Part shown: positions 43,033-64,000 of the stretch, in pieces
Layout: each line of letters opens with the position of its first letter
How positions within the stretch are numbered: the first letter of the stretch is position 1
Translations under genes and position numbers: made by a program
Assembly (NCBI GenBank): GCA_965261735.1
Contig: OZ253470.1
Span: 4,768,001 to 4,832,000 of the forward strand
DNA length: 64,000 nt
Direction of reading: 5' to 3'
Source: Alphaproteobacteria bacterium
GTDB lineage: Bacteria > Pseudomonadota > Alphaproteobacteria > SHVV01
The notes under the pieces: model-generated
Seen by the model: only the letters and a program-made list of their open reading frames with translations
Told to the model about the DNA's origin: nothing
The model's database searches: none

Positions 43033-43370
43033 GGCTATAAGTTACAGGAATAAATAAATGCGGTTGGGTTTGAAAAACGTCCGCTGCTTTCACAGCGTTA
43101 GACCTCGTTTACATCGCGCCTCTTACAACCTTAGTCGGCGAAAATAGCACGGGAAAGTCTTCATTTCTCGCGCTTCAAAGAATCGCTCTGGAATTAATTA
43201 CGGGAGACTGGGGTCCCAACTTCAACAAAGAACCCTTCTTTCTCGGCGCGTACGATCAAATAGCACATTTTCGCGCGGGTCGTTTTGGCCGCGCTAGTTC
43301 ATTTGAAATCGCGATTATCAACTTGACACGTCACGTCTCAATCCCCATATGCAGGGGACAGGAGGAAATA

Positions 43371-44225
43371 ATGACGACTTTCTACGATTTTCAGCAGCAG
43401 TTTCCCGATGACGAGGCGTGCCTTCACCACATAATGGTGAAGCGTTACGGCGGCACCGAGATTGACTGCCCGAAGTGCGGGGCGCATGGGAAGTTCTACC
43501 GCCTGGCACGTGATCGCGCGTATCTCTGCCAGCACTGCAAACACCACATTTATCCGTGCGCAGGCACATTCATGCACCGCACGCATCTGCCGCTTCACAA
43601 GTGGTTCTACGCCATATTCCTGTTCACCACATCGCGCCACGGCGTCCCCGCGAAGGAACTGGAGCGCCAACTTGACGTGTCCTATCCCACGGCTTGGCGC
43701 ATGGGTCATTTGATCCGCAAACACATGGCTAATACTGACGGAGAGTGGCCGCTGGACGGCGATATTGAAGCCGACGAGACCTATGTTGGTGGCCGTACGA
43801 CCGGTGGCAAGCGCGGTCGCGGCGCTCCGAACAAGACCGTGGTGTTCGGGATGCTGGAGCGCGACGGCGACGTGATGGCGAACGTTGTCCCGAACGTTCG
43901 AAAGCGGACTTTGCAGGCGTTTATCTCCGAGAACGTCGAGCCGGGTAGCACCGTTCATACTGACGAACTCAAGTCTTACAGCGGATTGGCGACGATTGGG
44001 TATACGCACCAGACCGTCAACCACAGCGCGGGCCAGTACGCGCGCGGCTCTAGCCATGTGAACTCGATTGAGGGCTTTTGGGCGCGGTTGAAGCTGTCGA
44101 TTCGCGGGACGCACGTTCATGTGTCCGGGAAGCACCTTCAGAAGTATGTGAAGGAGTTTGAGTATCGCTATAACCGCCGGAAGCGGCCTGGAACGATGTT
44201 TGGCGATCTGGTGGCCCGCTTCTAA
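43371..44225 (+). CDS. IS1595-family transposase (different subgroup from the 35.1-kb copy)
   Basis: GGAGG SD; CPKC...CQHC, IEADETYVGG, HTDE, HVNSIEGFW, EFEYRYNRR. Confidence 0.95.
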   Translation: MTTFYDFQQQFPDDEACLHHIMVKRYGGTEIDCPKCGAHGKFYRLARDRAYLCQHCKHHIYPCAGTFMHRTHLPLHKWFYAIFLFTTSRHGVPAKELERQLDVSYPTAWRMGHLIRKHMANTDGEWPLDGDIEADETYVGGRTTGGKRGRGAPNKTVVFGMLERDGDVMANVVPNVRKRTLQAFISENVEPGSTVHTDELKSYSGLATIGYTHQTVNHSAGQYARGSSHVNSIEGFWARLKLSIRGTHVHVSGKHLQKYVKEFEYRYNRRKRPGTMFGDLVARF

Positions 44226-46138: not shown

Positions 46139-47254
46139 CTACGGGCCACCGCCGGAAGCGATGGTGCTGTAGCGGTCGAGTGCCACGGTCTTGATGAGCG
46201 CGTAGACCTCGCGGCCGGGCGCCACGCCGAGTTCATCGGCCGAGCGCCGGGTGATGCGCGCCCACAGCATGCAGCCGATGTCGATCAGGACATCCCTTTG
46301 CGGGCCGGTATCGCCCGTTACCTCGCGAACGGTCCCATGAAAGACATTCAGGGTGCTGATTCGGGTTGGCGCCTCGATGGCGATCGCTACGTCGCGGGCG
46401 AAGACGCGAACGCGCTGGCGCGTCCCCACCGGCACATTCAGCCGGGAGACCAACAGCGTGCCCCCGGCGAACGCTAGTTTTGTGAGCTCGTAGGTCGAGT
46501 CGTGGCCCGTCACCGTAACCGGCACCACCGCTCCGGCGTCGACGCCACCGGTCAGCTGGCCGAGATCGGGGCGCGCCATCATTTCCTCGACCGGGCCGAC
46601 GGCGACCGCGCGACCCTCGGCCACCAGCACGACCGTGTCCGCAAGGCGTATGATCTCGTCCGCGTTGTGGCTGACGTAAACGATCGGAATCCCGAGTTCG
46701 TCGCGTAGGCCCTCGATGAAGGGGAGTATTTCCGAACGCCGGGCCACGTCGATCCCGGCGAGCGGCTCGTCCATCAGCAGGAGACGAGGGCTCGTGAGCA
46801 GCGCACGGCCGATGGCCACGCGCTGCTTTTCACCGCCCGACAGATGATGGGGCCGGCGTTCGGTGAGGTGGCCGATGCCGAGGAGCTCGATGACCCGATC
46901 GCGATCGACACGTCGTTCGGCCGCGGGCAGCCGGCGCATGCCGTAGCTCAAATTGGCGCCGACGCTCAGGTGAGGGAAGAGACGGCTTTCCTGGAAGACG
47001 TAGCCGATGCGCCGCCGCTCGGGGCGCAGATCGACGCCGGCATCGGAGTCGAAGAGGATGCGACCGCCGACGGCGATCCGCCCTGCATTGGGTCGGGTCA
47101 GGCCCGCCATCATGTCGACGAGTGTGGTCTTGCCGGCGCCGGACGGGCCGAACAGGGCGGTCACGCCGCCGCGCTCGCTCGTGAAGGAGACTTCGAGGCT
47201 GAAGCCGGGGAACTCATGCCGGACGTCGACCTCGATGACCGTGCTGGGGATCAC
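46139..47254 (-). CDS. modC: Molybdate ABC transporter ATPase
   Basis: GPSGAGKTT, LSGGEKQRVAIGRALL, C-terminal TOBE; GTG overlaps modB stop. Confidence 0.96.
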   Translation of the reverse strand: MIPSTVIEVDVRHEFPGFSLEVSFTSERGGVTALFGPSGAGKTTLVDMMAGLTRPNAGRIAVGGRILFDSDAGVDLRPERRRIGYVFQESRLFPHLSVGANLSYGMRRLPAAERRVDRDRVIELLGIGHLTERRPHHLSGGEKQRVAIGRALLTSPRLLLMDEPLAGIDVARRSEILPFIEGLRDELGIPIVYVSHNADEIIRLADTVVLVAEGRAVAVGPVEEMMARPDLGQLTGGVDAGAVVPVTVTGHDSTYELTKLAFAGGTLLVSRLNVPVGTRQRVRVFARDVAIAIEAPTRISTLNVFHGTVREVTGDTGPQRDVLIDIGCMLWARITRRSADELGVAPGREVYALIKTVALDRYSTIASGGGP

Positions 47255-47946
47255 GTGGGGCCTCCGAGTCGCTTGGCCACGCGCCGGGCCAGATATTCGG
47301 ATGCGATCAGCGCCGTCAGCGCCAGGGCCAGCGAGATGACGACCAGGCGAAGGGCGCCGGCCTCGCCGCCGACCGTCTGCGTGAGGGAGTACAGGGCCAG
47401 CGGCAAGGTTCGCGTTTCGCCGGGGACGTTGGAGACAAAGGTGATGGTGGCCCCGAATTCCCCGAGCGAGCGAGCGAAGGCGAGCACGGCGCCGGTGAGT
47501 AGGCCGGACGCGATCAGCGGCAGGGTGACGGTCGCAAACGCCTCGAGAGGTCCCGCTCCGAGCGTACGCGCCGCGACCTCCAGGCGGCGGTCGACGCCCT
47601 CGAGCGACAGCCGGATCGCCCGCACCATGAGCGGAAACGCCATGATCGCCGATGCGATCGCGGCCCCCTGCCACGTGAACACGAGGGTGATATCGAACAC
47701 GTCGTGAAGCCATGCGCCGACAAAGCCGCGCCGGCCGAGCAGGAGGAGCAGGACGTAGCCGACGACGACCGGAGGCAGCACCAGCGGCAGGTGGACGAGC
47801 GCGTTGAGCAGGGTCTTGCCGGGAAAGTCGCGCCGCACCAGCAGCCAGGCGACGAGGAGCCCGAGCGGCAGGGTTACCAGGACGCACCAGAACGCAACCC
47901 TCAGCGACAGCAGGAGGGCCCCCAGTTCGGACGGGCTCAGCGCCAT
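47251..47946 (-). CDS. modB: Molybdate ABC transporter permease
   Basis: HLPLVLPPVVVG, FARSLGEFGATI. Confidence 0.97.
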   Translation of the reverse strand: MALSPSELGALLLSLRVAFWCVLVTLPLGLLVAWLLVRRDFPGKTLLNALVHLPLVLPPVVVGYVLLLLLGRRGFVGAWLHDVFDITLVFTWQGAAIASAIMAFPLMVRAIRLSLEGVDRRLEVAARTLGAGPLEAFATVTLPLIASGLLTGAVLAFARSLGEFGATITFVSNVPGETRTLPLALYSLTQTVGGEAGALRLVVISLALALTALIASEYLARRVAKRLGGPT

Positions 47947-49792: not shown

Positions 49793-50959
49793 CTAGTCGG
49801 TCGCGCGAAGGCGGGCGAAGCCCTGATCCAGGTCGACGATGAGGTCGTCCAGGTCCTCGAGCCCGGCGTGGATGCGCAGGCTCGGCCCGGGCGCGTCCCA
49901 GGCTGTCGCCGTCCGACTCGACGCCGGGTCGGTCGGCACCATGAGGCTCTCATAGCCACCCCACGAATATCCCAATCCGAACAGCTCGGACGCGTCGATC
50001 AAGGCCGTGCGCGCCGCCTGCGAGCAGGGTTCGAGAACGACGCCGAACAGCCCGGAGGCACCCGAGAAGTCCCGCTGCCACAGCGTGTGGCCCGGATCAT
50101 CGTCGAGCGCCGGATACATCACCCGGGCGACCTCCGGCCGGTCGATGAGCCATCTCGCCAAGCCGAGCGCGTTGGCGTGATGGCGTTCGAGGCGGACCGA
50201 GAGAGTGCGCAGCCCGCGTTGGGCGAGATAGAGATCGTCAGGCCCCGCGCATAGGCCGAGCGTCTGCGTCGTCTCCTGCAGCGCCGGCCAGCACTCGGTG
50301 GTGGTGGTAACCGTCCCGAGCATCGCGTCCGAGTGGCCAACGATGTATTTGGTCGCCGCCTGGATCGACACGTCGACGCCCTTGGCGAAGGGCTCGAAAT
50401 AGAGCGGCGAGGCCCAGGTGTTGTCCATCATCACGCACGCGCCGCGTTCGTGGACAGCCGCCGCGATGGCTGGGATGTCCTGCACCTCGAAGGTCAGCGA
50501 GCCCGGCGATTCGGTGAACACGACCGTGGTGTTGTCGCGCATGAGCGCGGCGATATCGCTCCCGACCAGGGGGTCGTAGTACGTGGTCTCGACGCCGAGG
50601 CGGGCGAGCATCGTGTCGCAGAATCGCCGGGTCGGGCCATAGACCGCGTCGGCGATGAGCACGTGGTCGCCCACTTTCACGAACGCGAGCAGGGCGGCGG
50701 TGATGGCGGCTAGGCCGGAAGGGTAGGTCGCGCAGGCGTGGCCGCCCTCGAGGGTCGCGACCGCCTCCTCCAGCGTCACCGAGGTCGGCGTGCCGCGGCG
50801 GCCATAGATGACGCCCTCGTCGGGGTTTTCGCGCGCCCGGTGTAGGGCTTCGACCGTGGGGAAGAGCACCGTCGAGGCATGGTAGACCGGCGGGTTGACG
50901 ATGCCGTGCTGGTCGAAGGGGTGGCGGCCGGAAATGACGACGGTCGTGTCTCGTTTCAT
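49793..50959 (-). CDS. metC: Cystathionine beta-lyase
   Basis: VNPPVYHASTV, YGRRGTPT, DNTW, ATKYIVGHSD, SWGGYESL. Confidence 0.95.
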   Translation of the reverse strand: MKRDTTVVISGRHPFDQHGIVNPPVYHASTVLFPTVEALHRARENPDEGVIYGRRGTPTSVTLEEAVATLEGGHACATYPSGLAAITAALLAFVKVGDHVLIADAVYGPTRRFCDTMLARLGVETTYYDPLVGSDIAALMRDNTTVVFTESPGSLTFEVQDIPAIAAAVHERGACVMMDNTWASPLYFEPFAKGVDVSIQAATKYIVGHSDAMLGTVTTTTECWPALQETTQTLGLCAGPDDLYLAQRGLRTLSVRLERHHANALGLARWLIDRPEVARVMYPALDDDPGHTLWQRDFSGASGLFGVVLEPCSQAARTALIDASELFGLGYSWGGYESLMVPTDPASSRTATAWDAPGPSLRIHAGLEDLDDLIVDLDQGFARLRATD

Positions 50960-51059
50960 GACGCTACGCTCGACATGGGAGCAGGGGCGGACCGGATCAT
51001 CGCATTCCCGGACCGCTCAAGCCAGGAGGCAGGACTAGGGATGTGGCGGATCGGGATCG

Positions 51060-51166
51060 GGGTCGACGTAGAGACCGTGCGCCGGTTGCGCGGAACGAAG
51101 CCCATGCGTTGGTAGAGGGACAGGGCGCGCGGGTGATCGAAGGTGTTGGTGTAGACGCGCAGCCGC
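51060..51166 (-). pseudogene. C-terminal remnant of a GNAT acetyltransferase fused to sseA
   Basis: RLRVYTNTFDHPRALSLYQRMGF resembles the GNAT C-terminal motif (..T...DHP.AL.LYQ+.GF). Confidence 0.7.
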
Positions 51167-51911
51167 GACGCCGTGACGCCCGAGCCGCAGGTGGTGACGA
51201 CGGCCCGGCCAAGGTCGCCGCGGCGGCCTCGAACGCAGCTCTCAGCGCGGCCTCGTCTCGGAGAAGTCCAGTCTCGGCGTCGATCAGGCGATCGAAGGGC
51301 AAGTTGAGGCTGCCGGGGATATGGCCCGCGCTTATCCCGGGCCTAATTTCCGGTGCGGTGCCCGCGAAGCGCTCGGCCGAGCGCGCGTCGAGTACCTGCT
51401 CGTGCCGGCCGTCGAGATTCGCGCGGATGTCCTCGAGGCCGCGTACCAGCGCCGGATTAAGGCTCGCCTCGAACTCGCGCGGCTCGATAACCGGCGTGCT
51501 GCCTTTGATCGGCCTTCGCTCCGCCCGCCATTTGGGGAGCCCACCGTCGAGCACGGCGACGTTTCCATGGCCAAAGGCGCGAAACGTCCACCAGACCCGC
51601 GCCGCGCTATACAGGCCGCTGCCGTCATAGACCACGACCTGATCGTCGTTTCCGATGCCGAGAGCCGAGACCTCGCGCGCGAACTGCGCGGCGTCGGGGA
51701 GCATGTGCGGGAGCGGATTGGCCGTGTCCTTGATCTCGTCGATATCGAAGAAGCGGGCGCCCGGAATGTGGCCGGCGGCAAACTCCTCGCGCGCGTTGCG
51801 TCCCGAGGCCGGCAGATACCAGGAGCCGTCCAGGACGCGAATGTGGGGATGCGCGAACCGCGACCCTAGCCAGTCGGTTGAAACGACCGTGGTATTGTCA
51901 TACGACATCAA
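51167..51911 (-). pseudogene. sseA: 3-mercaptopyruvate sulfurtransferase, frameshifted near 51220 and truncated after CGSGVTA
   Basis: VSTDWL, GHIPGARFFDID, RVWWTF, LDARS, GHIPGS; VVTTCGSGVTA is out of frame and YDGSW is absent. Confidence 0.85.
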
Positions 51912-51940
51912 TAAGCTCCCTTATCTCATTGATGTGATGG

Positions 51941-52657
51941 TTAAACAAAAGAAACAGTGACTCTTCGATTGCGCCGCCCCTTGCTCTCGATTTTGCTCAC
52001 GGCGACGGCGCCGATTTCCCCGGTTCGCGCCACATGAGTGCCGCCGCAAGCCTGGAGATCGAGGCCCTCGACGCGCACCAGCCGCACCTCGCCGGCGCCG
52101 GCCGGAGGCTTTACCGATAGGGTCTTAACCAGATCCGGCCGGCGCGCGAGATCCGCCTCGGCGATCAACTCGGCGCTGACCGCGGCGTCGTCGCCCACGA
52201 GCCTATTGAGTTCGGCCGTGATTGCCGCCTTGTCGAGCGCGGCGTCGGCCACGTCCAGGTCGAGGCGACCCTTGCCTTCACCGACCTGGCCGCCGGTGAC
52301 GGGATAGGGGAGCACCGCCGACAGCAGGTGAAGGCAGGTGTGCATGCGCATCAGCCTGTGGCGGCGCGACCAGTCGATCTCGGCCGTGACCGTATCGCCG
52401 GGCGCAAGACCCCGCCACGCGGAGTCCGTGGCGGCGAGATGCACGATCGTGCCGGGCTCCTCGCCCTTGACCGCGCTCTCGATGGCGACGTCGCCGTCGG
52501 CGAAGGTGAGCCGCCCGCTGTCTCCAGGCTGCCCGCCGCCGGTGGGATAGAACACCGTGCGGTCGAGTTCGATACGACCGTCGGCGACCGAGATCAGGCG
52601 GGCCTCGCAACGCTTGGCATAGGCATCGGCCTGGAACACGGCTTCGGTGCGCGCCAC
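51941..52657 (-). CDS. AlaX-type alanyl-tRNA editing protein
   Basis: FYPTGGGQPGD, MRMHTCLHLL, CGGTH. Confidence 0.93.
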   Translation of the reverse strand: MARTEAVFQADAYAKRCEARLISVADGRIELDRTVFYPTGGGQPGDSGRLTFADGDVAIESAVKGEEPGTIVHLAATDSAWRGLAPGDTVTAEIDWSRRHRLMRMHTCLHLLSAVLPYPVTGGQVGEGKGRLDLDVADAALDKAAITAELNRLVGDDAAVSAELIAEADLARRPDLVKTLSVKPPAGAGEVRLVRVEGLDLQACGGTHVARTGEIGAVAVSKIESKGRRNRRVTVSFV

Positions 52658-52660
52658 GGC

Positions 52661-53665
52661 TCAGTCCTCCAGCCAGTCCGGCGTCGGCAGCCCCTTTTCG
52701 CGCAGGAACGCCGGGTTGAACAGCCTGCTTTGATAGCGGGTCCCGTAGTCGGCGAGGATCGTGACGATGGTGTGACCGGGCCCTAGCTCCCGGGCCATGC
52801 GTACGGCCCCGGCCACATTGATGCCCGTCGATCCGCCCAGGCACAGCCCCTCCTGGCGCAGTAGGTCGAAAATGTAGGGCAGCGCCTCCGTGTCCGGGAT
52901 CTGGAAGGCCGTGTCGACGGGTGCTCCTTGGAGATTCTCGGTAACGCGGCCCTGGCCGATGCCTTCGGTGATGGAGCTGCCCTCCGCCTTGAGCTCGCCG
53001 TGCGTATAGTAGTTGTACAGGGCGGCCCCCATCGGGTCGGCGAGCGCGATCGTCACATCGGGCTTGCGTTCCTTGAGTGCCATTCCGACGCCGGCAAGGG
53101 TCCCGCCGGTGCCGACCGAGGACACGAAAGCATCGATCTTGCCGTCAGTCTGGCGCCAGATTTCGGGGCCGGTGCCCTCGTAGTGGGCGCGCCGGTTGGC
53201 GACGTTGTCGAACTGATTGGCCCAGATCGCCCCATTGGGCTCCGAGCGCGCGAACTCCTCGGCGAGGCGTCCCGAGATCTTCACGTAGTTGTTGTCGTCG
53301 GCATAGGGCACCGCCGGCACCGGCCGCAGATCGGCTCCGCACAGGCGAAGCATGTCCATCTTCTCCTGGCTCTGCGTGTCGGGAATGACGATCACGCTGC
53401 GGTAGCCGCGCGCATTGCCGACGAGTGCGAGGCCAATACCGGTGTTGCCGGCCGTGCCCTCGACGATGACGCCGCCGGGTCGCAGCAGACCGCGCTCCTC
53501 GGCGTCGCGGATGATGTAGAGGGCGGCCCGGTCCTTGACCGAGTTCCCGGGGTTGAGAAACTCGGCCTTGCCGAGAATCTCGCAGCCGGTGGCCTCGGAG
53601 ACCCGATCCAGGCGAACGAGTGGCGTGTTGCCGATCAGGTCGATGAAGCCGTCTGCGAGTTGCAC
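52661..53665 (-). CDS. cysK: Cysteine synthase A
   Basis: IGNTPL, NPGNSVKDR, EGTAGNTG, GTGGT, EGIG. Confidence 0.93.
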   Translation of the reverse strand: MQLADGFIDLIGNTPLVRLDRVSEATGCEILGKAEFLNPGNSVKDRAALYIIRDAEERGLLRPGGVIVEGTAGNTGIGLALVGNARGYRSVIVIPDTQSQEKMDMLRLCGADLRPVPAVPYADDNNYVKISGRLAEEFARSEPNGAIWANQFDNVANRRAHYEGTGPEIWRQTDGKIDAFVSSVGTGGTLAGVGMALKERKPDVTIALADPMGAALYNYYTHGELKAEGSSITEGIGQGRVTENLQGAPVDTAFQIPDTEALPYIFDLLRQEGLCLGGSTGINVAGAVRMARELGPGHTIVTILADYGTRYQSRLFNPAFLREKGLPTPDWLED

Positions 53666-53747
53666 GGTGGGGAAGGAGCTGGGGAGGCGAGGGCGGTGCA
53701 ATCTAGCGGTCCGCCGGGGCCCGTTCAAGGGCGAGCAAGCCCGGGAG

Positions 53748-54353
53748 CTAGCGCCAGCGCTGGTGAACGCTATCGTGATTGAGCGCGAGCCACTGCAGGC
53801 CAATGACGGCGGCCGCGGTGTTGATGCGACCGGACGCCACGGCTGCGAACGCCTCCTCGCTCGTCATGACCAGGGCGCGGATGTCCTCGTCCTCGTCGTC
53901 CTTGCCGTGGACGCCGCCCGCCGATTCGGCATCGACGCGGCCGAGGAACAGCGTGACGTATTCCGACGATCCGCCGGGGCTCGCAAAGAATCCGCCGATG
54001 GGTTCGAGCGCTTCGAGCGTGAGGCCAGTCTCCTCCTGGGTCTCCTGTCGCGCCACCTCCGCCGGCGCCTCGTCCGCTCCGACGATGCCCGCGACCAGCT
54101 CGATCGGCCGCAGCGGGCCGCCTCCCGCGTGGGAGGCGATGCGGACCTGTTCGATCAACACCACGCGGTCCCGCGCTGGATCGTAGAGCAGAATGGCCGC
54201 GGCGTGGCCGCGCTCGAACACCTCGCGCACCACCACGCGGCTCCAGCCGCCGTCGTAGAGCCGATGGCGAAATCGATATCGGTCGACGCGGAAGAAGCCC
54301 TTGAACGGCGTCTCGATTTCAAGAATTTCGAGGTCCGCGTCGGCACCGGTCAT
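53748..54353 (-). CDS. nudF: ADP-ribose pyrophosphatase (Nudix)
   Basis: REVFERGHAA, Nudix box AG....E....ARQETQEETG, SPGGSSE, EDEDI. Confidence 0.85.
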   Translation of the reverse strand: MTGADADLEILEIETPFKGFFRVDRYRFRHRLYDGGWSRVVVREVFERGHAAAILLYDPARDRVVLIEQVRIASHAGGGPLRPIELVAGIVGADEAPAEVARQETQEETGLTLEALEPIGGFFASPGGSSEYVTLFLGRVDAESAGGVHGKDDEDEDIRALVMTSEEAFAAVASGRINTAAAVIGLQWLALNHDSVHQRWR

Positions 54354-54413
54354 GGCTCTAACGCGGGACAACGGCGCGACGCAAGACGAGCGTCGATGTG
54401 GCGCCCGCCTCGC

Positions 54414-55121
54414 CTAGTAGTAGCGCCAGACGTTGTACTGGTTGTAGTACATGTCGCCGGTGTGGAGCACGGCGAAGCGGACCTCGTCCTGGGTACGCGG
54501 GGTTGTGGCATAGCGCGCCATGGCCGTGGGTCCGAGCGTGCCATGCTCTTCCTCGACGTCCGAGGCGTGTACGGAGAACGACATCAGGCCCTCGTCAGAC
54601 AGGTCGTAGTGCTCGCGCAAGCCCTTTTCCAGCTTGCCGAACACCAGGGGGTTGATGCGCTCGGCCGCGAACGAGACCGACGATATCGACTCGACAAACG
54701 GGCGGTTGCGGATGACGACCTCGAACCAGTGCCGCAGCGCCCAGGACTCGATGCGGATCGGGTCCTGCGCCCGGCGCTCCTCATCCCAGCCGAGCTCGGT
54801 GAGTGAGGTTTCGATCAGCTTCATGTGACCCGCCGTCTGCGAGCTCTCGCCGTGCTCCTCCTCGAGCATGTTCTCGAGGATGCCCTCGCGCAGGTCGTCG
54901 TCGGGGCACTTCGCCCAGAGCACGCCAAACAGCTTGTTCGACGGGTCCGCCCACAGCGAGAACTGATGGAGCCAGCCGGCGATCTGGTCCTTGGTTGCTT
55001 CGCCCTTCTCGACCGCCGCCACGAAAGGATGCTCAAGCCGGTTGCGCACCGGATCGAACAGCCCGTGTTCGAGTTCCTTCAGGAGTTTGTCGTTGCTGGT
55101 CGGCTGTTGTGCGGCAGTCAT
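54414..55121 (-). CDS. Heme-oxygenase-like (PqqC/TenA/CADD-fold) putative diiron enzyme, paralog 2
   Basis: LEHPF, ENMLEEEHG......H, AAE, HASDVEEEH match the E/H/E/H/(D,E)/H ligand layout. Confidence 0.85.
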   Translation of the reverse strand: MTAAQQPTSNDKLLKELEHGLFDPVRNRLEHPFVAAVEKGEATKDQIAGWLHQFSLWADPSNKLFGVLWAKCPDDDLREGILENMLEEEHGESSQTAGHMKLIETSLTELGWDEERRAQDPIRIESWALRHWFEVVIRNRPFVESISSVSFAAERINPLVFGKLEKGLREHYDLSDEGLMSFSVHASDVEEEHGTLGPTAMARYATTPRTQDEVRFAVLHTGDMYYNQYNVWRYY

Positions 55122-55156
55122 GGGGTTCTCCGGTTCGCCGCGCCCGAACGGCGCGC

Positions 55157-55885
55157 CTAGTAGTGCTTCCAGACGTCGTACTGGCGGTAATACATCATCG
55201 CGGTGTGGTCGACGACGAAGCGGATTTGCTCCTGGTCGCGGGCCGTCGTCGCGTAGCGCTCGATCGCGATGGGGCCGAGCGTTGCATGCTCCTCCTCGAT
55301 GTGGGAGGCGTGGACGGAGACCGACATCATCGCCTTCTCGCTGAGGTCGTAATGGGCGAGCAGGCCCTTTTCGATCTTGCCGAACACGAAGGTGTTCATG
55401 CGCTCAGCCGTGAACGAGGTCGCGCAGATCGCCTCGACGAACGGGCGCTGGCGCATGATGACCTCGAGCCAGTGCCGGAAGGCCCAGGATTCGTACTGGG
55501 TGATGTCGGTCGCGCGGCGCTCTTCGCTCCAGCCGAGCTCCCGGATCGTGGCGTCGATCAGCCGCATGTGGCCGGCCGTCTCGGAGCTCTTGCCATACTC
55601 CTCTTCGAGCATGTTCTCGAGCAACCCCTCGCGCAGGTCGTCATCCGGGCAGTTCGACCACATGTCGCCGATGAACTTGTTGCACGGGTCGGCCCACAGC
55701 GAGAACTGATTGAGCCACCCAGCGATCTGATCCTTCGTCGCCGTGCCGTTGAGGACCGCGAGTACGAAGGGGTGTTCGAGGCGGTTGCGCCCGGGGCTGT
55801 CGACGATCCCCAAAAGCTCCTCAACGAACGCCTCGGTGCTCAGGGGTTGTGTTTGGGTTTCCTGCCGCTCCGCCGCAACTGACAT
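55157..55885 (-). CDS. Heme-oxygenase-like putative diiron enzyme, paralog 1
   Basis: SD gaggagga; LEHPF, ENMLEEEYG......H, TAE, HASHIEEEH; clearly homologous to 54414-55121. Confidence 0.85.
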   Translation of the reverse strand: MSVAAERQETQTQPLSTEAFVEELLGIVDSPGRNRLEHPFVLAVLNGTATKDQIAGWLNQFSLWADPCNKFIGDMWSNCPDDDLREGLLENMLEEEYGKSSETAGHMRLIDATIRELGWSEERRATDITQYESWAFRHWLEVIMRQRPFVEAICATSFTAERMNTFVFGKIEKGLLAHYDLSEKAMMSVSVHASHIEEEHATLGPIAIERYATTARDQEQIRFVVDHTAMMYYRQYDVWKHY

Positions 55886-55978
55886 CGCATCATCCTCCTC
55901 TTGAAGGACCGCCATCCTACGCGCTCGCATCGCCGTAGCCAAGAGGATGGCGCGACGAATCGGCCAGTCAAGTGGCGG

Positions 55979-56335
55979 CTAATTGGTGCTGTGGCGGGCC
56001 ACGTAGGTGCCGCCCACGGCGGCGCTGAAAAAGCGCTGGAGATCGGGATAGCGTATCGGCTCGCCGCTGTCGTCCGAGTCGAGGTTGCGCTCGGCCACGT
56101 AGGTCCAGTGCGCCGCGTCGTGGACCAGCACGTGGTCCCACGGTCGATCCTTCGGCGGCCGGCTGCGGGCCATGCGCTCGTACCACTCGTCGGAGCCGCT
56201 GAACACCGAGTCGACGTCGACGACGACGCCGCGATAGCCGAATAGGCGGTGGCAAACGACCTGGCCGACGCCGAACTTGGCCTCGCCGCCGAGCGCTCCG
56301 CCATCACCACCGCCCGGTGTTTCCGTGCCTCCCAT
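55979..56335 (-). CDS. hspQ: HspQ/YccV-like protein
   Basis: AKFGVGQVVCHRLFGYRGVVVDVD, PPKDRPW, TYVAERNL. Confidence 0.9.
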   Translation of the reverse strand: MGGTETPGGGDGGALGGEAKFGVGQVVCHRLFGYRGVVVDVDSVFSGSDEWYERMARSRPPKDRPWDHVLVHDAAHWTYVAERNLDSDDSGEPIRYPDLQRFFSAAVGGTYVARHSTN

Positions 56336-56336
56336 C

Positions 56337-57161
56337 CTACGCTCCGGCGCCGTCGAGAAAGTCGATAACCGTGCGGTTGAACAGGTCGGGAACCTCCAGG
56401 TACGAGACGTGCCCGGCGTCGGGGATCGCGACAAGTTCGGCGCTCGCTATCTTCTCGCGGGCCCTGACGCCTATCGCCAGCGGGACCGCCGCGTCCTCCT
56501 CGCCCCAGATCAGGAGCAGCGGCTTGGAGGCGGCGAGATCGGCCAGGCGGTCGCCGATATTGTCCTCATCAATCCGCTCGGCGATGTAGTCGCCGAGGCT
56601 GTCGAACGCGGCGACCGCACCGGGCGAGTTGTTGATGCGGAACTCTTCGTCGATCAGCGCCTCGGTGATCAGCGCTTTCTTGGCGAAGACGAGCTGCAGC
56701 TTGCCCGCGATCCCCTCGCGGGTCGTGTTCTTCACGTTGTCGCGGACAATGGCGCTGGCCTCGGGGCCGATCGGGATGATGCCGACGCTGCCGACGAGCG
56801 CGACGGCACTCACGCGGTCGGGGTGGTCGCACGCGAACATGCCGCAAACGTGGCCGCCGAGCGAGGTGCCAACGACCGCCGCGCGGGCGAGGCCGGCCGC
56901 ATCGGCGAAGTCCTTGACGAAACCCGCGAACGCGGGCACGCCGTACGCATAGTCCGTGTTCTTGTCGGCGAATCCGTGACCGGGGAGGTCGATCGCGTAG
57001 CAGTGATAGCCGGCCGCCGCGATCGCTTCCAGGTTGGCGATCCAGCGGTCGGCGCGCGCGCCCAGGCCGTGGACGAAGATGACTGCCCGGTCGCCGCTCC
57101 CGGCCTCGATGACGCGCGTCAGCGCTTCGCCGGCGGCAAAGGGATAGCTGATGATGGCCAT
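56337..57161 (-). CDS. Alpha/beta-fold hydrolase
   Basis: FVHGLG, IDLPGHG, nucleophile elbow GTSLGG, WGEEDAAVP, AGH. Confidence 0.93.
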   Translation of the reverse strand: MAIISYPFAAGEALTRVIEAGSGDRAVIFVHGLGARADRWIANLEAIAAAGYHCYAIDLPGHGFADKNTDYAYGVPAFAGFVKDFADAAGLARAAVVGTSLGGHVCGMFACDHPDRVSAVALVGSVGIIPIGPEASAIVRDNVKNTTREGIAGKLQLVFAKKALITEALIDEEFRINNSPGAVAAFDSLGDYIAERIDEDNIGDRLADLAASKPLLLIWGEEDAAVPLAIGVRAREKIASAELVAIPDAGHVSYLEVPDLFNRTVIDFLDGAGA

Positions 57162-57214
57162 GGTCTCTCCTCGTCTCGGTGGGCGATCACGTTGCGCGGA
57201 CCCCGATACGGAGG

Positions 57215-57302
57215 CTAACCGCCGAGGTAGGACCGCTGGACCTCGTCATTGTCGAGGAAGGTCCCGGCCCGGGCCTTCGAAGGCGATCTCGCCGGTCGAG
57301 AA
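57215..57302 (-). pseudogene. C-terminal remnant of a LivF-type ABC transporter ATPase
   Basis: STGEIAFEGPGRDL (+1 frameshift) LDNDEVQRSYLGG* resembles the LivF C-terminus (G.I..EG...EL..N.EV..AYLG). Confidence 0.7.
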
Positions 57303-57315
57303 CCTCGCCGTCGTA

Positions 57316-58497
57316 CTACGAAAACTTACGCGGCCCAGGATCGCGCAGGATCTGCATGGTGCCGCAGTGCATGCCGCCGCCGAACCGGTTGTACTCGTCG
57401 TACTCGATCGGTATCACCTCGACGCCGGCGGCCCGCACGCGCTTGATCGTCTCCTTGGCCCCGGCGTGCATGATCACCAGGCCGGGCTCGATCGTGACCG
57501 CGTTGCACGCGCACGCCTCGACCTGTTCCTCCACCGGTGCCTCGATGATCTTGTAGCCGTTGCCCCACAGGAACCTGTTGGTATCGACGTCGAGCGCTGC
57601 CGGGTAGCAGATCACCTTGTCGACGTCGACCGGCGAGATGATCATGTCGGTGTGTGCGGAGATACCCGAGCCGTGGTCGAAATAGCCCATGCCCGGCGTG
57701 TAGATGCGCTGAATGTGGACGTCTTCGCCGCACGCCCTCTTGAGCACGGGAAGGAACTGCTCCATGCCGGCCTCGTTGGTCTCGACGCTGATGGCGTGGA
57801 CGTAGACGTCGTCGGCCAGGAACAGGCCCTGTACCCACACGGCCTTGCCGACGACGGTGAGCAAAGGCGCGATGCCGAGGTTCCAGAAGGCCCAGCGCGC
57901 GAGGTGCTCGGTCCGGCCGAAGCCCGACAGGGGCGCGAGCGCGTAGCCCTTCTTGGGGATGATCGAGCCCCCCGGCAGGATGGTCAGCTCGCCCGCTGAG
58001 TGCTGATTGGTCATCGGACCGAAGGCCGCCATCGGCCTTTCCGGATACTCGATCCAATAGATCTTGACGCCGCACGAGGTCAGTGCCTCCGCGTACATCA
58101 GCTGCTGCTCGCGCAGCTTGCCGATATCCATCTTGCGCTCTTCGAGCATGCCGTCGCGGACGATGTAGTCGGGGTCTTCCTTCATGTACGGGTGTTCGGC
58201 GTAGTTGTCGTCGTCGGAGACACGCACGAGGCCGACCTCGCGCAGCTTGCCGATCCCGGCCGAGCCGCATTTGCGGCCGAAGACCTCGTCGTAATAATTG
58301 AGGTAGTCATAATCGTGCCAGTCGAAGGGGTTCTGCTCGAGGCTCTTGCCCTTGCCCTTGTAGAAGGGGACGTCGTTGAGGGTCCAGTTGCGCCGGCGCT
58401 GGCGCTCCTGGTGCGCGTCGTACTCGGTCAGCGCGAACTCCTGACTCCGGCGCCCTTCGGGCAGCTGGGTCCCCTCCTTGCCGCTGATCTGGGTCAT
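57316..58497 (-). CDS. Pentein-superfamily (amidinotransferase/arginine deiminase/DDAH fold) protein, paralog 3
   Basis: GKLREV first strand, HTD, CN.V.IEPG, C-terminal GGGMHCGTMQILRD. Confidence 0.88.
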   Translation of the reverse strand: MTQISGKEGTQLPEGRRSQEFALTEYDAHQERQRRRNWTLNDVPFYKGKGKSLEQNPFDWHDYDYLNYYDEVFGRKCGSAGIGKLREVGLVRVSDDDNYAEHPYMKEDPDYIVRDGMLEERKMDIGKLREQQLMYAEALTSCGVKIYWIEYPERPMAAFGPMTNQHSAGELTILPGGSIIPKKGYALAPLSGFGRTEHLARWAFWNLGIAPLLTVVGKAVWVQGLFLADDVYVHAISVETNEAGMEQFLPVLKRACGEDVHIQRIYTPGMGYFDHGSGISAHTDMIISPVDVDKVICYPAALDVDTNRFLWGNGYKIIEAPVEEQVEACACNAVTIEPGLVIMHAGAKETIKRVRAAGVEVIPIEYDEYNRFGGGMHCGTMQILRDPGPRKFS

Positions 58498-58534
58498 CTC
58501 AAAGGCCTTTCCCTGCTCTTCGGTGGGCGTCTTA

Positions 58535-59716
58535 TCAGCTGAACTTGCGCGGCCCGGGATCGCGCAATATCTGCATCGAGGCGCAATGTAGGCCGGCGCC
58601 GAACAGGTTGTACTCGTCGTAGTCGACAGCGATCACCTCGACGCCTGCCTGGCGCACCTTGTCGATCGTCTTGCGCGCGCCGGCGTGCATGATGACGCGC
58701 CCCGGCTCGAGCGGAATGAGGTTGCAGGCAAGGGCCCCCGACTGCTCCTCGGGCTCGGCCTCGATGACCTGGTAGCCGTTGTTCCACAGCCACCTGTTGG
58801 TATCGACGTCGATGCCGGGCGCGTGGACCAGCACCTTGTGCAGGTCGAGGGGGGCGATCACCATGTCGGTGTGGGCGCTGATCCCGGTGGCGCGGTCGAA
58901 ATAGTCGTGACCCGGCGTGTAGATGCGCTGGATGTGCAGGTCCTCGCCGACGACGCGGCGCATCACCGGCTCGACCTGGCTCATGCCCTCTTCGTTGGTT
59001 TCCACCGCCATGGTCTGGCAGTAGACGTCGTCAGCGAGAAACACCCCGGTCACCCACATGCCCGTCCCGACGACCGTAATCAGCGGCGGGATGCCGAGGT
59101 TCCAGAACGCCCATCGCGCCAAATACTCGGTCCGTCCGAAGCCCGAAGTCGGCGCCAGCGCATAGCCTTTCTTGGCGATGATCGAGCCGCCCGGCAACAC
59201 CGTAAGCTCGGCGGCTGACATCTGGTTGGTCATCGGCCCGAAGGCCGCCATTGGGCGCTCCGGGTACTTGATCCAGTAGACCTTGACCCCCTGTTCCTGG
59301 AGGACATCGGCATAGCGCGCTTGTTGGTCGCGCATTTTGGGGATGTCCATCTTCTTCTCGGCCAGGAAGCCGTCGCGGTCCATGTAGCCGGGGTCTTCCT
59401 TGACGTAGGGGTGCTCGGCGTAGTTGTCGTCCTCGCTGACCTCGAGGAGGCCGACCTCGCGCAGCTTGCCGATCCCGGCCGAGCCGCATTTGCGGCCGAA
59501 GACCTCGTCGTAATAGTTGAGGTAGTCGTAATCGTGCCAGTCGAAGGGGTTCTGCTCGAGGCTCTTGCCCTTGCCCTTGTAAAAGGGGACGTCGTTAAGG
59601 GTCCAGTTGCGCCGGCGTTGACGCTCCTGGTGCGCGTCGTACTCGGTGAGCGCGAACTCCTGGCTCCGGCGCCCTACCGGCAGCGGGGTCCCCTCTTTGC
59701 CGCTAATCTGTGTCAT
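58535..59716 (-). CDS. Pentein-superfamily protein, paralog 2
   Basis: HTD, CNLIPLEPG, GAGLHCASMQILRD; N-terminus nearly identical to paralog 3. Confidence 0.88.
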   Translation of the reverse strand: MTQISGKEGTPLPVGRRSQEFALTEYDAHQERQRRRNWTLNDVPFYKGKGKSLEQNPFDWHDYDYLNYYDEVFGRKCGSAGIGKLREVGLLEVSEDDNYAEHPYVKEDPGYMDRDGFLAEKKMDIPKMRDQQARYADVLQEQGVKVYWIKYPERPMAAFGPMTNQMSAAELTVLPGGSIIAKKGYALAPTSGFGRTEYLARWAFWNLGIPPLITVVGTGMWVTGVFLADDVYCQTMAVETNEEGMSQVEPVMRRVVGEDLHIQRIYTPGHDYFDRATGISAHTDMVIAPLDLHKVLVHAPGIDVDTNRWLWNNGYQVIEAEPEEQSGALACNLIPLEPGRVIMHAGARKTIDKVRQAGVEVIAVDYDEYNLFGAGLHCASMQILRDPGPRKFS

Positions 59717-59826
59717 GTCTTTCCCTGTCAGGCGATAGATGGATCGCTGGAGTTGCGGCCGGCGACCGCGCTGCGCTGCCGCCCGCGCCGGTACCCGACC
59801 CCTGTCCTTAGGCTGCCAGAGCCGAT

Positions 59827-61005
59827 CTACGAGAACTTGCGCGGCCCTGGATCCCTGAGGATCAGCATGGTCGCGCAAGTAATGGCCGCCCCGTATTTGT
59901 TGTACTCGTCGTAATCAATGGAGACCACCTCGACGCCGGCCTTGCGCACCGCCGCGATCGTCTTTTCGGCGCGCGCGTGCATCATCACATGGCCTGGTTC
60001 GAGGTTGACGATGGCCGCGGCCGAATGCTGGATCTGCTCGTTTAGGTCGGCCTCGATCACCGTATAGCCGTTCTTGCGCAGCCAGACGTGGGTGTTGATG
60101 TCGACGCCCGCTGTGTGCACGAGCACCTTGTCCACGTCGAGCCCGCTGATGACCATGCCGCCGTGGGTGTTGGCGCCGGTGTACTTGTCAAAGTACTTCC
60201 ACCCGGGCGTCCTTATCGGCTGGATGTGGATGTCTTCGCCGCACACGTGCCTGAGCACCGGCGTGACCTGATTGAGGCCATCCCAATTCGTCTCGACTCC
60301 CATGCCCTGCATGTAGACGTCATCGGCGAGGAAGGTACCGGTGACCCATACGCCCTTGCCGGTGACGGTCAACAGGGGCGGGATGCCGAGGTTCCAGAAC
60401 GCCCAGCGCGCCAAGTATTCCGCTCGCCCGAGCCCCGCGGTCGGCGCCAGGGCGTAGCCTTTTTTGGGGATGATCGAGCCGCCCGGCCAGATTGCGAGTT
60501 CGGCCGCCGAATGCATGTTCATCATCGGCCCGAAGGCCGCCATGGGCTTTTCCGGGTACTCGACCCAGTACACCTTGACGCCGGCCTTCTCGAACGCTTC
60601 GGCGAACGCCTCGGCCTCGTCGTTGAGCCTGCTGACATCCACCTTGTCGCTCAGGAGGAAGAAGCCGTCTCGGTTCATGTACTCCTTGTCTTCGTGAAAG
60701 TAGGGGTGATTGGAGTACTCGTCGTCGGGGGTCGGGCGGACGATGCCGACTTCGCGCAGCTTGCCGATCCCGGCCGACCCGCACTTGCGGCCGTAGATCT
60801 TGTCGTAGGCCTCCATGTAGTCGTAGTTGGCCCAATCGAAGGGATCGTGTTCCTGGCCCTTGCCCTTGTAGAAGGGCACATCCTTGAGCTTCCAGTCGTG
60901 CTGGCGCAGCTTTTCCTGATGGAGGTCGTATTCGGTGACCGCGAAGCTCTGGCTCCGCCTCTTTTCCGGCAGAGGCTCGTTCTCGTCGCCCTTGATCTCT
61001 GCCAT
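59827..61005 (-). CDS. Pentein-superfamily protein, paralog 1 (most divergent)
   Basis: SD gggagg; GKLREV, HGG in place of HTD, GAAITCATMLILRD. Confidence 0.86.
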   Translation of the reverse strand: MAEIKGDENEPLPEKRRSQSFAVTEYDLHQEKLRQHDWKLKDVPFYKGKGQEHDPFDWANYDYMEAYDKIYGRKCGSAGIGKLREVGIVRPTPDDEYSNHPYFHEDKEYMNRDGFFLLSDKVDVSRLNDEAEAFAEAFEKAGVKVYWVEYPEKPMAAFGPMMNMHSAAELAIWPGGSIIPKKGYALAPTAGLGRAEYLARWAFWNLGIPPLLTVTGKGVWVTGTFLADDVYMQGMGVETNWDGLNQVTPVLRHVCGEDIHIQPIRTPGWKYFDKYTGANTHGGMVISGLDVDKVLVHTAGVDINTHVWLRKNGYTVIEADLNEQIQHSAAAIVNLEPGHVMMHARAEKTIAAVRKAGVEVVSIDYDEYNKYGAAITCATMLILRDPGPRKFS

Positions 61006-62325: not shown

Positions 62326-62637
62326 TCACTCTATCGTGGGCGCGGCGTCCACGAGCACCGCACCCTCGGTGTTCGCACCGGCGAGGTTGGTCCGGTACAA
62401 ATCGGCATCCGTGAGATCGGCACCGCTCAGGTTGGTGGGCCACATCTGCCCGGTCTTTTTGCCGTCCGCATCTTTGAGTTCAACGGGTCCGAGATCGGCG
62501 TGGGCCAGCTTCGCGCCCTGTAAGTTGGCGTTGTTCAGGTTGACGCCCTTAAGGTCGGAATAGCTGAGATCGGCACCGGCCAGGTTTGAGTCATGAAGAT
62601 CGCACAGGACGAACCAGCCCGACGACAGGTTGGTACC
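62326..62637 (-). pseudogene. Pentapeptide-repeat protein, 3' remnant
   Basis: NLSSG...DLHDS NLAGA DLSYS DLKGV NLNNA NLQGA...NLSGA DLTDA DLYRT NLAGA; no start codon, abuts IS30 fragment. Confidence 0.85.
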
Positions 62638-63346
62638 GGTCGGATCTCGGCACCGGATGGAACGGTGATCGAGGGGCCACGCGTCGTCTGGAACGGTCGT
62701 CGGCATGGGCCGCGGCAGCGCAGGCGATGGGCCAGGGCCTGGAGTCCTGAGCAGATCGCGCACCGTCTTCGGATCGACTATCCTGGGGACGGGCCCGAGG
62801 ATCAAGCGATGCGGATCAGTCATGAGGCGATCTATCAGGCGCTCTACGTACAGGGCCGCGGCGCACTCCGTCGTGAGCTGACCGCCTGCCTTCGCACGGG
62901 AAGGGCACTGCGCGTGCCTCGGGCACGTAGCCGCCGGCGGGGAAAATCCTTCGTCACGCCTGAGATCATGATCAGTGAACGATCGGCGGAAGCAGCTGAT
63001 CGGGCCGTACCCGGACACTGGGAAGGTGACCTGATCATCGGCTTGGGCAGATCGGCGATCGGCACTCTGGTGGAACGCACCACGCGGTTCACAATGCTGC
63101 TGCATCTTCCCCGAATGGAAGGCCACGGCACCGTCCCGCGCGTGAAGAACGGGCCTGCGCTTGCCGGTCATGGGGCTGAAGCGGTTCGCGATGCCATCGC
63201 CCGGACGATCACGACATTGCCAGCGCAGCCGCTCGCTGACCTGGGACCAGGGAGCAGAGATGGCCAAGCATGCGGATCTGCGGATCGCAACCGGCCTTCC
63301 CGTCTACTTCTGCGAACCGCACAGCCCTTGGCAACGCGGAACGAAC
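62638..63346 (+). mobile_element. IS30-family transposase fragment (5'-truncated, frameshifted near 63230, interrupted by IS1595)
   Basis: WSPEQIA, ISHEAIYQ, PGHWEGDL, LVERTTRF; then [20 protein letters not shown] in another frame. Confidence 0.92.
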
Positions 63347-64000
63347 CTTGCCTATCCGGTTAACGCCCATGACCGCTACATGTAGGGTGCCGCCACTCTC
63401 CCGAGTAAAGCTCGGCATAGGTTGGAGCAGAGGTGTCGCCCGCGATGCCGAGCAATGAGCGGAAGGCGTTGAACGGGTAGAACCGCCTGTTGAAGCGGAA
63501 GGTGAACTCGTTGAGGTAGGCTTGTAGGTGCTGGTGGCTAACGCCGTGATGGATACCGATCAGCCACGTCTTCAGGTTGGCGAAAACCAGATGGATGATC
63601 GGCAGGTATTGCTCGGCAACCTCTGGATCACCACACTCGGCAACAGCGAAGTGCTCATAGCCGCGCTTACCGAGGCCAGCATAGCCGCTCCAATCGTCAG
63701 TAACGATCAGCGATCGCGGCGCGACGGTGCTCTCGACGAACCCACAGAGCGACTCGGCGCTACGGTCGAGCACGACGGCGAGCCGAACGCGTCCGGCATA
63801 GCGTCCGTCTTTCCGGTTGTCGAGCTTGGTGCCCGGCTTTCGATGACGCACCTCGATGGCACAGGAGACGGGAACCTTGTGGTGAACACCACGGCCTTCC
63901 CCACGCGTTCGCCCGCCAACCCAGGTTTCGTCCACCTCAACATGGTTCTTGGGCTGTCCACCGATCCTGTCTTGGTTGGGCCGCACCATGCCCGAGCGGA
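63347..64000 (-). mobile_element. IS1595-family element, copy 2 (near-identical to 35131-36235; runs off window)
   Basis: Starts with IR cttgcctatccggtt; translated region differs from copy 1 at only two residues (TRR/TRG, APG/APR). Confidence 0.96.

Follow-up and report, generated by a model that had tools for sequence, protein, structure and literature searches.

A candidate catabolic gene set of NnhA-like penteins, an alpha/beta hydrolase and heme-oxygenase-like proteins beside the remnant of a Liv importer

Do three penteins, an alpha/beta hydrolase and two heme-oxygenase-like proteins that stand side by side in an alphaproteobacterial genome act on the same compound, and if so, on what kind of compound? 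The question is raised by positions 54414–61005 of a 64,000-nucleotide stretch of contig OZ253470.1 (hereafter the window; its genome is G000), where seven uninterrupted open reading frames (ORFs) run co-directionally on the minus strand. In the direction of reading these are PenC, PenB, PenA, the alpha/beta hydrolase (ABH), an HspQ/YccV-like gene and two heme-oxygenase-like dimetal oxidases (HDO2 and HDO1), separated by 110, 37, 154, 1, 93 and 35 bp, with the HspQ ATG one base past the ABH stop. Gene families were assigned with Pfam and NCBIfam, and starts were refined from protein alignments and the sequence; an NCBIfam equivalog cut-off was reached by HspQ alone among the seven genes. An earlier description made from the letters alone (the sequence-only reading) had reported seven closely spaced, intact, co-directional minus-strand genes, which the ORFs confirm, its ends coinciding exactly with the HDO1 stop and the PenC start. 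Its gene identities also hold in outline for three penteins, an ABH, two heme-oxygenase-like proteins, in which we find the six dimetal ligand positions kept, and a lost Liv-type importer. The stretch is a composite of two accessory gene sets, which probably work together, and with a probability of about one half we favour a catabolic system that uses O2 to break down a guanidino or amidino amino acid, the importer of which is now lost. The firm part of this answer is a conserved NnhA-like pentein pair, tied to an amino-acid-type importer that is deleted here.

The penteins are encoded on the minus strand at 59827–61005 (PenC, 392 aa), 58535–59716 (PenB, 393 aa) and 57316–58497 (PenA, 393 aa). 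Penteins attack the carbon of guanidino, amidino or ureido groups via a Cys nucleophile, and membership of this superfamily is indicated by scores of 39.6, 31.7 and, for PenC, 25.8 bits against the Pfam arginine deiminase (ADI) model PF02274 (cut-off 22.8), which covers just the C-terminal 70–80 residues of the proteins, including the Cys. The closest solved relative of PenA is the 2-nitroimidazole nitrohydrolase NnhA of Mycobacterium sp. JS330 (PDB 9azg and 9b01), with an alignment to 9azg over residues 34–390 (E 5.2e-56), as against E values of only ~1e-5 over ~60 residues for structures of ADI and dimethylarginine dimethylaminohydrolase (DDAH). These two enzymes belong to the same pentein/guanidino-group-modifying enzyme superfamily, but an assignment to either was ruled out by scores far under the curated cut-offs (33.7 versus 489.1 for TIGR01078, arcA; 31.6 versus 450 for NF045658, DDAH). 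PenA has the same long N-terminal arm as NnhA, and differs in that the identity is about one third, as estimated by eye from the printed alignment, and in that the present proteins form heterotypic pairs tied to an amino-acid-type importer. PMC11659421 places NnhA in a cluster of uncharacterised proteins and holds that a function is not predictable below 50% identity.

The tree and alignments indicate that the penteins are an uncharacterised alphaproteobacterial clade derived from two old paralog types, C and A/B. In the maximum-likelihood tree, this clade divides into a C type and an A/B type, with support of 100/100 and 95/93, respectively, and each tandem pair in the tree combines one member of each type; PenC is the C member, while PenA and PenB, which are 76% identical, are of the A/B type. 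In genus g2 (G001, G004 and G006), the partner gene is the PenB ortholog, with 80–82% identity in G001/G004 and 76% in G006, and in genus g4 (G005 and G007) it is the PenA ortholog (79–80%); here, as throughout, G001, G002 and G004–G007 denote relatives in the window's family, G041 a distant genome and L numbers individual loci. A word-index search of ~5.8 billion protein clusters returned 244 pentein relatives, the nearest of which are alphaproteobacterial metagenome proteins and the next, at ~45% identity, proteins of Acidimicrobiia, Thermoleophilaceae/Solirubrobacteraceae and Binatia. The sequence-only reading, although right about the superfamily, had recognised neither the likeness to NnhA nor the pairing of C with A/B members, nor that both the pentein and the HDO families are strongly expanded in this bacterial family.

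Catalytic residues are retained unevenly across the two types. Cys357 and His260 (NnhA numbering) are present in PenA, PenB and PenC. Asp262 and Asn311, at which the D262N and N311D variants of NnhA are described as inactive in PMC11659421, are present in PenA, PenB and their orthologs, and PenC has Gly and Ala. The His and the Cys are found in all 12 C-type rows of the alignment, in which position 262 is Gly or Ala and position 311 is Ala, and the C type, with a mean column identity of 82%, is the more conserved partner; the proposal that PenC is a dead subunit, which the loss of Asp262/Asn311 would suggest, was not kept as a firm claim because of this retention and conservation. At the position of Lys356, which holds the nitro group in NnhA simulations according to the same text, PenA and PenB have His and PenC has Thr. 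Glu197, there given as part of a His-Glu base, is missing clade-wide through a 3-residue deletion that leaves a Trp at the aligned column (GKAVWVQG-LF here versus GKGVCEAGPC in actinobacterial relatives and 'gamepgac' in NnhA). The clade does have a Glu within a 'VETNE' motif that the Cys-less A2 proteins lack, and this residue may substitute for Glu197. The A2 proteins are a second partner type that lacks the Cys, and the A-type partner of the G041/L127 lineage lacks both the His and the Cys.

Structure prediction is consistent with an association of the two types. PenC and PenA were predicted to form a heterodimer with a score of 0.94 (best control 0.00), at least 85% contact agreement between runs and a partner pLDDT (predicted local distance difference test) of at least 89. 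Of the complexes used for calibration, 116 of 157 solved ones reached the mark, as did 2 of 215 mismatched pairs. The predicted interface is formed by the N-terminal arm and an invariant ARWAFWNLG segment, in line with the domain-swapped dimers mentioned in the abstract of PMC11659421, and in the cell PenC may form a heteromer with PenA or PenB.

Additional penteins are found in the same genomes. Loci L015, L016 and L009 hold second C/A pairs of G001, G004 and G005; in the A2 partners of these pairs the nucleophile Cys is replaced by Ser and Asp262 by Asn, so that they look like pseudo-enzymes; a binding protein and a short-chain dehydrogenase/reductase lie upstream of these pairs in G001 and G004, and a LigXa-like Rieske oxygenase and an ABH downstream in G001, G004 and G005. 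G000 itself has the truncated pseudogene of a C-type pentein (C1:1693578–1694477; L020, 8576–9427), which contains a single internal TAA, is 74% identical to the G041 C-type protein over 282 residues and adjoins Mutator-family and IS1595 transposase genes. It also has five tandem ADI/DDAH-like penteins and a sixth divergent one, 28–31% identical to PenA (C1:2186332–2195778; L019, 7327–16785), accompanied by an NMT1-type binding protein, a creatinase/prolidase-like M24 enzyme, an ABC permease and a Rieske oxygenase, which makes this locus a second, larger expansion of guanidino-modifying enzymes within the genome.

An importer of the LivJ/LivHMGF (HAAT) type is conserved alongside the pentein pair. 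Among pair loci of the C1 or G041 lineage, the DNA downstream was readable in eight (those of G001, G004, G005, G006, G007 and G041, together with L127 and L128), and in all eight the pair is followed by substrate-binding protein (SBP) and Liv genes. The usual order after the pair is SBP, a fused LivHM of ~640–650 aa, LivG and/or LivF, the fusion of the permease halves being a difference from the known system; in G005 the importer comes after the second pair, a Rieske gene and an ABH gene, and at L127 the contig ends past the SBP. The SBP is nearest to amino-acid binders, with E 2.6e-42 for 3ip5 (Atu2422-type) and ~1e-33 for LivJ/LivK.

Only the last 22 livF codons are retained in the window. 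The 154-bp spacer between PenA and ABH contains, at 57215–57280 on the minus strand, a reading frame that ends ...FLDNDEVQRSYLGG before its stop codon, comparable to the LivF C-termini of pentein-linked importers in relatives (LLDNEEVQRSYLGS, LLGNEEVQRSYLGS and VLNDPEVQRSYLGA, each followed by the stop), and 10 of its 12 last residues are identical to those of the cognate LivF of L013; the intact ATPase gene is not present. A tblastn search of the window with the relatives' SBP, LivHM, LivG and LivF (E<=1e-3) found just an unrelated ABC ATPase at 46562–47206, and a more permissive search for Liv remnants yielded mostly noise apart from the livF tail. A close ortholog of the cognate importer was not found in G000 either, where LivHM has a best match of 30% identity and SBP has none at E<=1e-20. 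Because the livF tail remains and G000 has no close importer ortholog, we conclude from the sequence that an SBP-LivHM-LivG-LivF importer of ~4.7 kb is deleted from the window and that the livF tail is its scar. The LivF remnant reported in the sequence-only reading is thus real, and the leaning towards catabolism drawn from it is supported by the linkage of importer and pentein pair in relatives.

The second gene set contains the two heme-oxygenase-like proteins, HDO1 (54414–55121, 235 aa; PF14518, E 5e-17) and HDO2 (55157–55885; E 5.8e-11), both on the minus strand. HDO2 belongs to the HDO1 clade and corresponds, according to the tree, to the array orthogroup at the fliG/HspQ end. The AlphaFold2 model of HDO1 (pLDDT 93.6) has a seven-helix heme-oxygenase-like fold, for which the best Foldseek match is CADD (8va9; template-modelling score 0.82/0.90), followed by PqqC, TenA, UndA, BesC, FlcD and HrmI, and profile matches to CADD/pABA synthase chains have E values of 1.4e-09 to 1.6e-09. 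Six predicted dimetal-ligand positions (E88/E89, H99, E154, H185, E190 and H193) are invariant among 21 clade sequences; in alignments they coincide with E81 and H88 of CADD and with the corresponding E, H, D and H residues in chain 9pj4. CADD, a self-sacrificing p-aminobenzoate (pABA) synthase (PDB 1rcw, 8va9 and 9pj4), and PqqC are the best sequence and fold matches, with the aligned ligand positions kept, but HDO1 has Val at the position aligned to CADD Tyr27, which we take to be the sacrificial residue of that enzyme. The curated cut-offs for a CADD-type pABA synthase (TIGR04305, 52.8 and 36.0 bits versus 200) and for PqqC (TIGR02111, 30.9 and 26.2 bits versus 240) are not reached, and the 19 HDO-family matches in G000 do not fit a single cofactor-synthesis role.

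A chemical connection to the penteins is offered by RohS and SznF, which are also HDOs and act on 2-aminoimidazole, a cyclic guanidine, and on a substrate guanidine, respectively (PMC13133933 and PMC13108848). PMC13133933 gives the product of RohS as 2-nitroimidazole, that is, the substrate of NnhA, so that the occurrence of HDOs beside NnhA-like hydrolases is chemically suggestive; it also lists E, H, E, H, D/E and H as the six ligands conserved in RohS and further HDOs, a set that the six positions of HDO1 match. No sequence-level link was found, RohS and SznF being absent from the PDB sequence and fold matches of HDO1, and the 'seventh' Glu ligand common to these two enzymes was not located in HDO1.

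HDO-family matches number 19 in G000 and 5–30 in seven relatives (14–30 in six of them), and weak ones occur in 5 of 33 other sampled genomes of the class; the HDO1 clade (E<=1e-40) is very rare, being found in only three genomes, all members of this family, out of 401 sampled for the class. The HDO of G041 is most similar in G000 to HDO1 (62%) and HDO2 (57%), and in the HDO tree it falls within the HDO1 clade, in a basal polytomy, and outside the clade of dispersed paralogs. Elsewhere in G000 (C1:4196000–4215999, L040), five distant HDO paralogs are interleaved with other genes in a 15-kb array, among them two NMT1-type binding proteins, ABC permease and ATPase genes, two ABH genes, a FAD_binding_2 flavoprotein and an extradiol-type VOC protein, a setting that looks catabolic.

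ABH (56337–57161, minus strand, 274 aa) is an alpha/beta-fold serine hydrolase (PF00561, E 3.2e-31). It shares the general fold and the GxSxG nucleophile motif (here GTSLG) with the meta-cleavage-product hydrolases HsaD, BphD and MhpC, the best solved matches (E 7e-30 to 7e-24; HsaD 7zjt, E 7.4e-30), but differs from them in having no extradiol dioxygenase partner in the window, and it remains below all NCBIfam equivalog cut-offs (108.6 versus 400 for HsaD, 87.4 versus 462 for BphD). Orthologs at 61–63% identity adjoin the HDO array in G001 and G004, and one at 48% is part of the G041 cluster. The HspQ/YccV-like gene (55979–56335, minus strand; TIGR02097, 88.4 bits versus a cut-off of 38.05) is probably a backbone gene and a bystander to the cluster, because it is present between fliG and nudix-cysK at the syntenic site of G002, where no ABH or HDO match was found.

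On these observations we propose the following scheme. One set of genes would encode a heteromeric NnhA-like pentein hydrolase (PenC with PenA and/or PenB), whose cognate LivJ-type importer has been deleted, and the other the alpha/beta hydrolase and the two heme-oxygenase-like dimetal oxidases. A guanidino- or amidino-bearing amino acid would be taken up, in relatives by the cognate importer, and oxidised with O2 by the diiron enzymes; the pentein heteromer would then cut a C–N bond at the amidine carbon via its Cys nucleophile and His, and the serine hydrolase would take off a further acyl, ester or C–C linked fragment, with the nitrogen freed for assimilation. That the HDO and ABH proteins act on the pentein substrate, the order of the steps and the class of substrate are what we infer. 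A guanidino or amidino amino acid is our best guess because of the relatives of the SBP, the chemistry of the superfamily and the arginine-carboxypeptidase-like and RidA neighbours found elsewhere. A more specific version, drawn by analogy with the biosynthetic enzymes RohS and SznF, is oxidative denitrogenation of guanidine-type amino acids, in which an HDO would N-oxygenate a guanidino or cyclic-guanidine nitrogen and an NnhA-like heteromer, composed of one subunit with conserved Cys and His and a partner that varies and is in some cases catalytically dead, would expel this nitrogen as nitrite or hydroxylamine; we consider it speculative and unlikely in this precise form.

Whether the penteins and the HDO and ABH genes belong to a single pathway, as the sequence-only reading had supposed, is answered in two directions by comparison. 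On the supporting side stands locus L049 of G041, an uncultured alphaproteobacterium (57% GC) that presumably lies outside the window's order, as it is not among that order's eight genomes. L049 has HDO, PenC, PenA, SBP, LivHM, LivG, LivF, RidA, a transposase and an inverted ABH, in an order unlike that of the window and co-directional from HDO through LivF, with the ABH ortholog 3.3 kb beyond this run; identities to the window are 62% for the HDO (to HDO1), 70% for the C-type pentein, 60% for the A-type and 48% for ABH. The 7.9-Mb genome has one HDO, two pentein and one ABH match at E<=1e-20, all within ~12 kb, a placement to which our own arithmetic assigns a chance probability of ~1e-5. The HDO1-clade array and the pentein pair both occur in G000, G001, G004, G005, G006 and G007, whereas G002 (97% complete), the one complete genome of the family that lacks penteins, has neither an ABH nor an HDO match at its syntenic site fliG-HspQ-nudix-cysK-alaX. 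ABH and the HDO array are thus accessory genes, the presence of which tracks that of the penteins in the genomes examined. At this G002 site, fliG matches as two overlapping pieces (L143:9332–10268; residues 1–112 and 108–319), which suggests a frameshift or an assembly error.

A number of observations weigh against the single system. In G001, G004, G005 and G007, the pentein pair and its Liv importer lie on another contig than the HDO array near fliG/cysK, and the fragmented G006 shows the same pair and importer. At the fliG site itself, the order is fliG, then ABH-HspQ-HDO array-cysK-alaX in G001 and G004, the only two in which ABH and HspQ adjoin the array, and fliG, then HDO array-nudix-cysK in G005 and G007; no pentein was found at this site in any of the four. 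None of the 10 pentein loci of relatives (L009–L018) has an HDO match by tblastn (E<=1e-5), and Pfam finds no HDO in the six of them that were scanned. The pentein-Liv unit of relatives adjoins instead GbcA-like Rieske oxygenases, an arginine-carboxypeptidase-like amidohydrolase and an HpcH-type aldolase, and an NCBIfam scan of these neighbours gave no equivalog-level match (the GbcA-like Rieske protein, a Xaa-Pro-dipeptidase-like amidohydrolase and others fall below cut-off). The sequence-only reading had proposed co-occurrence of the two families as a check, and here the outcome is mixed: across phyla, the HDO profile is negative in 57 of 58 pentein loci, drawn from a one-genome-per-species collection, and the sole positive locus is L049. 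G041 is a metagenome-assembled genome whose binning is unverifiable; in its A-type pentein (L049:10001–11149) Arg replaces the catalytic His and Ser the Cys, the gene is interrupted by an internal TAA, and its SBP gene (L049:11159–12319) has one internal stop; these stops are either decay or assembly errors, and the copy may be decaying. The remaining genomes are kin, so that the link rests on about two independent lineages. Within the window, the system may be idle in G000 since its importer is gone, and the clade-wide loss of Glu197 together with the replacement of Lys356 means that NnhA-type chemistry is not assured. The predicted dimer may owe its score solely to the solved structure of NnhA, a domain-swapped homo-oligomer; the prediction indicates likeness to the NnhA dimer and does not distinguish heteromer from homomers. 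At least 86% of the sampled words of the stretch are contained in 16 sequencing runs from nine studies, and, in favour of the system, contigs from four metatranscriptomic runs (two studies) cover parts of HDO1, HDO2, ABH, PenA, PenB and PenC at 95–100% likeness, bridging the HDO1/HDO2 junction (54546–55383) and the PenB/PenA junction (58350–58595) and covering the livF-tail spacer (57175–57329), but such contigs do not prove transcription. A metagenome scan for pentein pairs gave 8 loci and is neutral on the HDO link, the DNA 5' of the C-type gene being readable only in copies of known loci.

These points leave room for a chance juxtaposition, in which a pentein-Liv unit landed between fliG and an existing ABH-HspQ-HDO block and then lost its importer, the two sets having unrelated substrates. 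The separate contigs of G001, G004, G005 and G007 are what this would predict, and with 19 HDO-family matches in G000 proximity is not very improbable (an estimated 1–4%). It does not sit well with G041, where the families are single- or dual-copy and yet lie together in a different order, or with G002, which lacks the penteins and, at the syntenic site, ABH and the HDO array as well. The livF tail also abuts ABH, and for this reason a complete, co-directional Pen-Liv-ABH-HspQ-HDO array must once have been contiguous; we regard chance as a doubtful explanation, though one to be taken seriously. Alternatively, the HDO array, with or without ABH, could belong to the sulfur and amino-acid genes downstream of HDO1 (window 49793–54371: NUDIX, a cysteine-synthase-like PALP protein, AlaX, a rhodanese-domain protein and a Cys/Met-metabolism pyridoxal phosphate (PLP) enzyme) and not to the penteins. 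The order PALP-AlaX-rhodanese-Cys/Met PLP is kept in every relative examined where the contig extends (NUDIX has no match in G001 and G004), and the array is co-directional and tightly spaced in every relative examined, with gaps between the last HDO and PALP of 22 bp in G004 and 6 bp in G001, a linkage that counts against the favoured system. G002, however, keeps nudix-PALP-AlaX-rhodanese-Cys/Met PLP without an HDO match, which identifies these genes as a conserved backbone that does not need the array, and the HDO of G041 has none of them within 10 kb; this assignment is improbable. A biosynthetic role, with N-oxygenation by the HDOs and amidino-group transfer or modification by the penteins yielding an N-oxidised small molecule, is highly improbable. 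HDOs have so far been presented as natural-product biosynthetic enzymes, as in a 2026 review (PMC13108848), and the formation of an NnhA substrate by RohS (PMC13133933) would fit such a role. Against it, the transporter conserved alongside the pentein pair is an importer and not an exporter, and the 11 Pfam-annotated loci have hydrolases, Rieske oxygenases, RidA and GntR/IclR regulators as neighbours, with no nonribosomal peptide synthetase, polyketide synthase, ATP-grasp or exporter core seen in the 11, for five of which only picked ORFs were scanned.

The catabolic system thus remains our preferred reading, and parts of it matter irrespective of the HDO link. The NnhA branch of penteins, until now with a single characterised member, is seen to include conserved heterotypic pairs with an amino-acid-type importer; these importer-linked pairs provide a handle on the natural substrates of the branch and bear on whether penteins can act as heteromers with a pseudo-enzyme subunit. 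The 5–30 HDO-family matches per genome, beside nutrient importers, point to unexplored catabolic roles of HDOs. If the HDO–pentein link is true, it would represent a new bacterial route to nitrogen from guanidine-type compounds, and oxidative denitrogenation, if true, would provide the first HDO pathway in catabolism and the first pentein to work as a heteromer, and would help to explain the abundance of HDOs beside importer genes in the family. The sequence-only reading had not recognised the gene combination from any characterised pathway, and our literature search, with subscription journals outside its coverage, found no paper on a pentein–HDO cluster.

Scans for transcription signals in the stretch were uninformative: one promoter-like site (61074–61045, just 5' of PenC) was found where 1.1 were expected, and three terminator-like sites, all on the plus strand, where 4.3 were expected. 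Elsewhere in the window, a 582-aa ORF at 46139–47887 has ABC ATPase and TOBE domains that begin only at residue 232, and its long N-terminal part, which has no family match, may be a mis-start or a fusion. IS1595 (ISXO2-like) transposase genes lie at 43323–44225 and 63360–63998, the second running past the window end, and between fliG and this second copy there are a pentapeptide-repeat gene (62326–63267) and an overlapping 256-aa ORF without a Pfam match. The ORFs of the window, filtered by GC content at third codon positions, are otherwise tightly packed.

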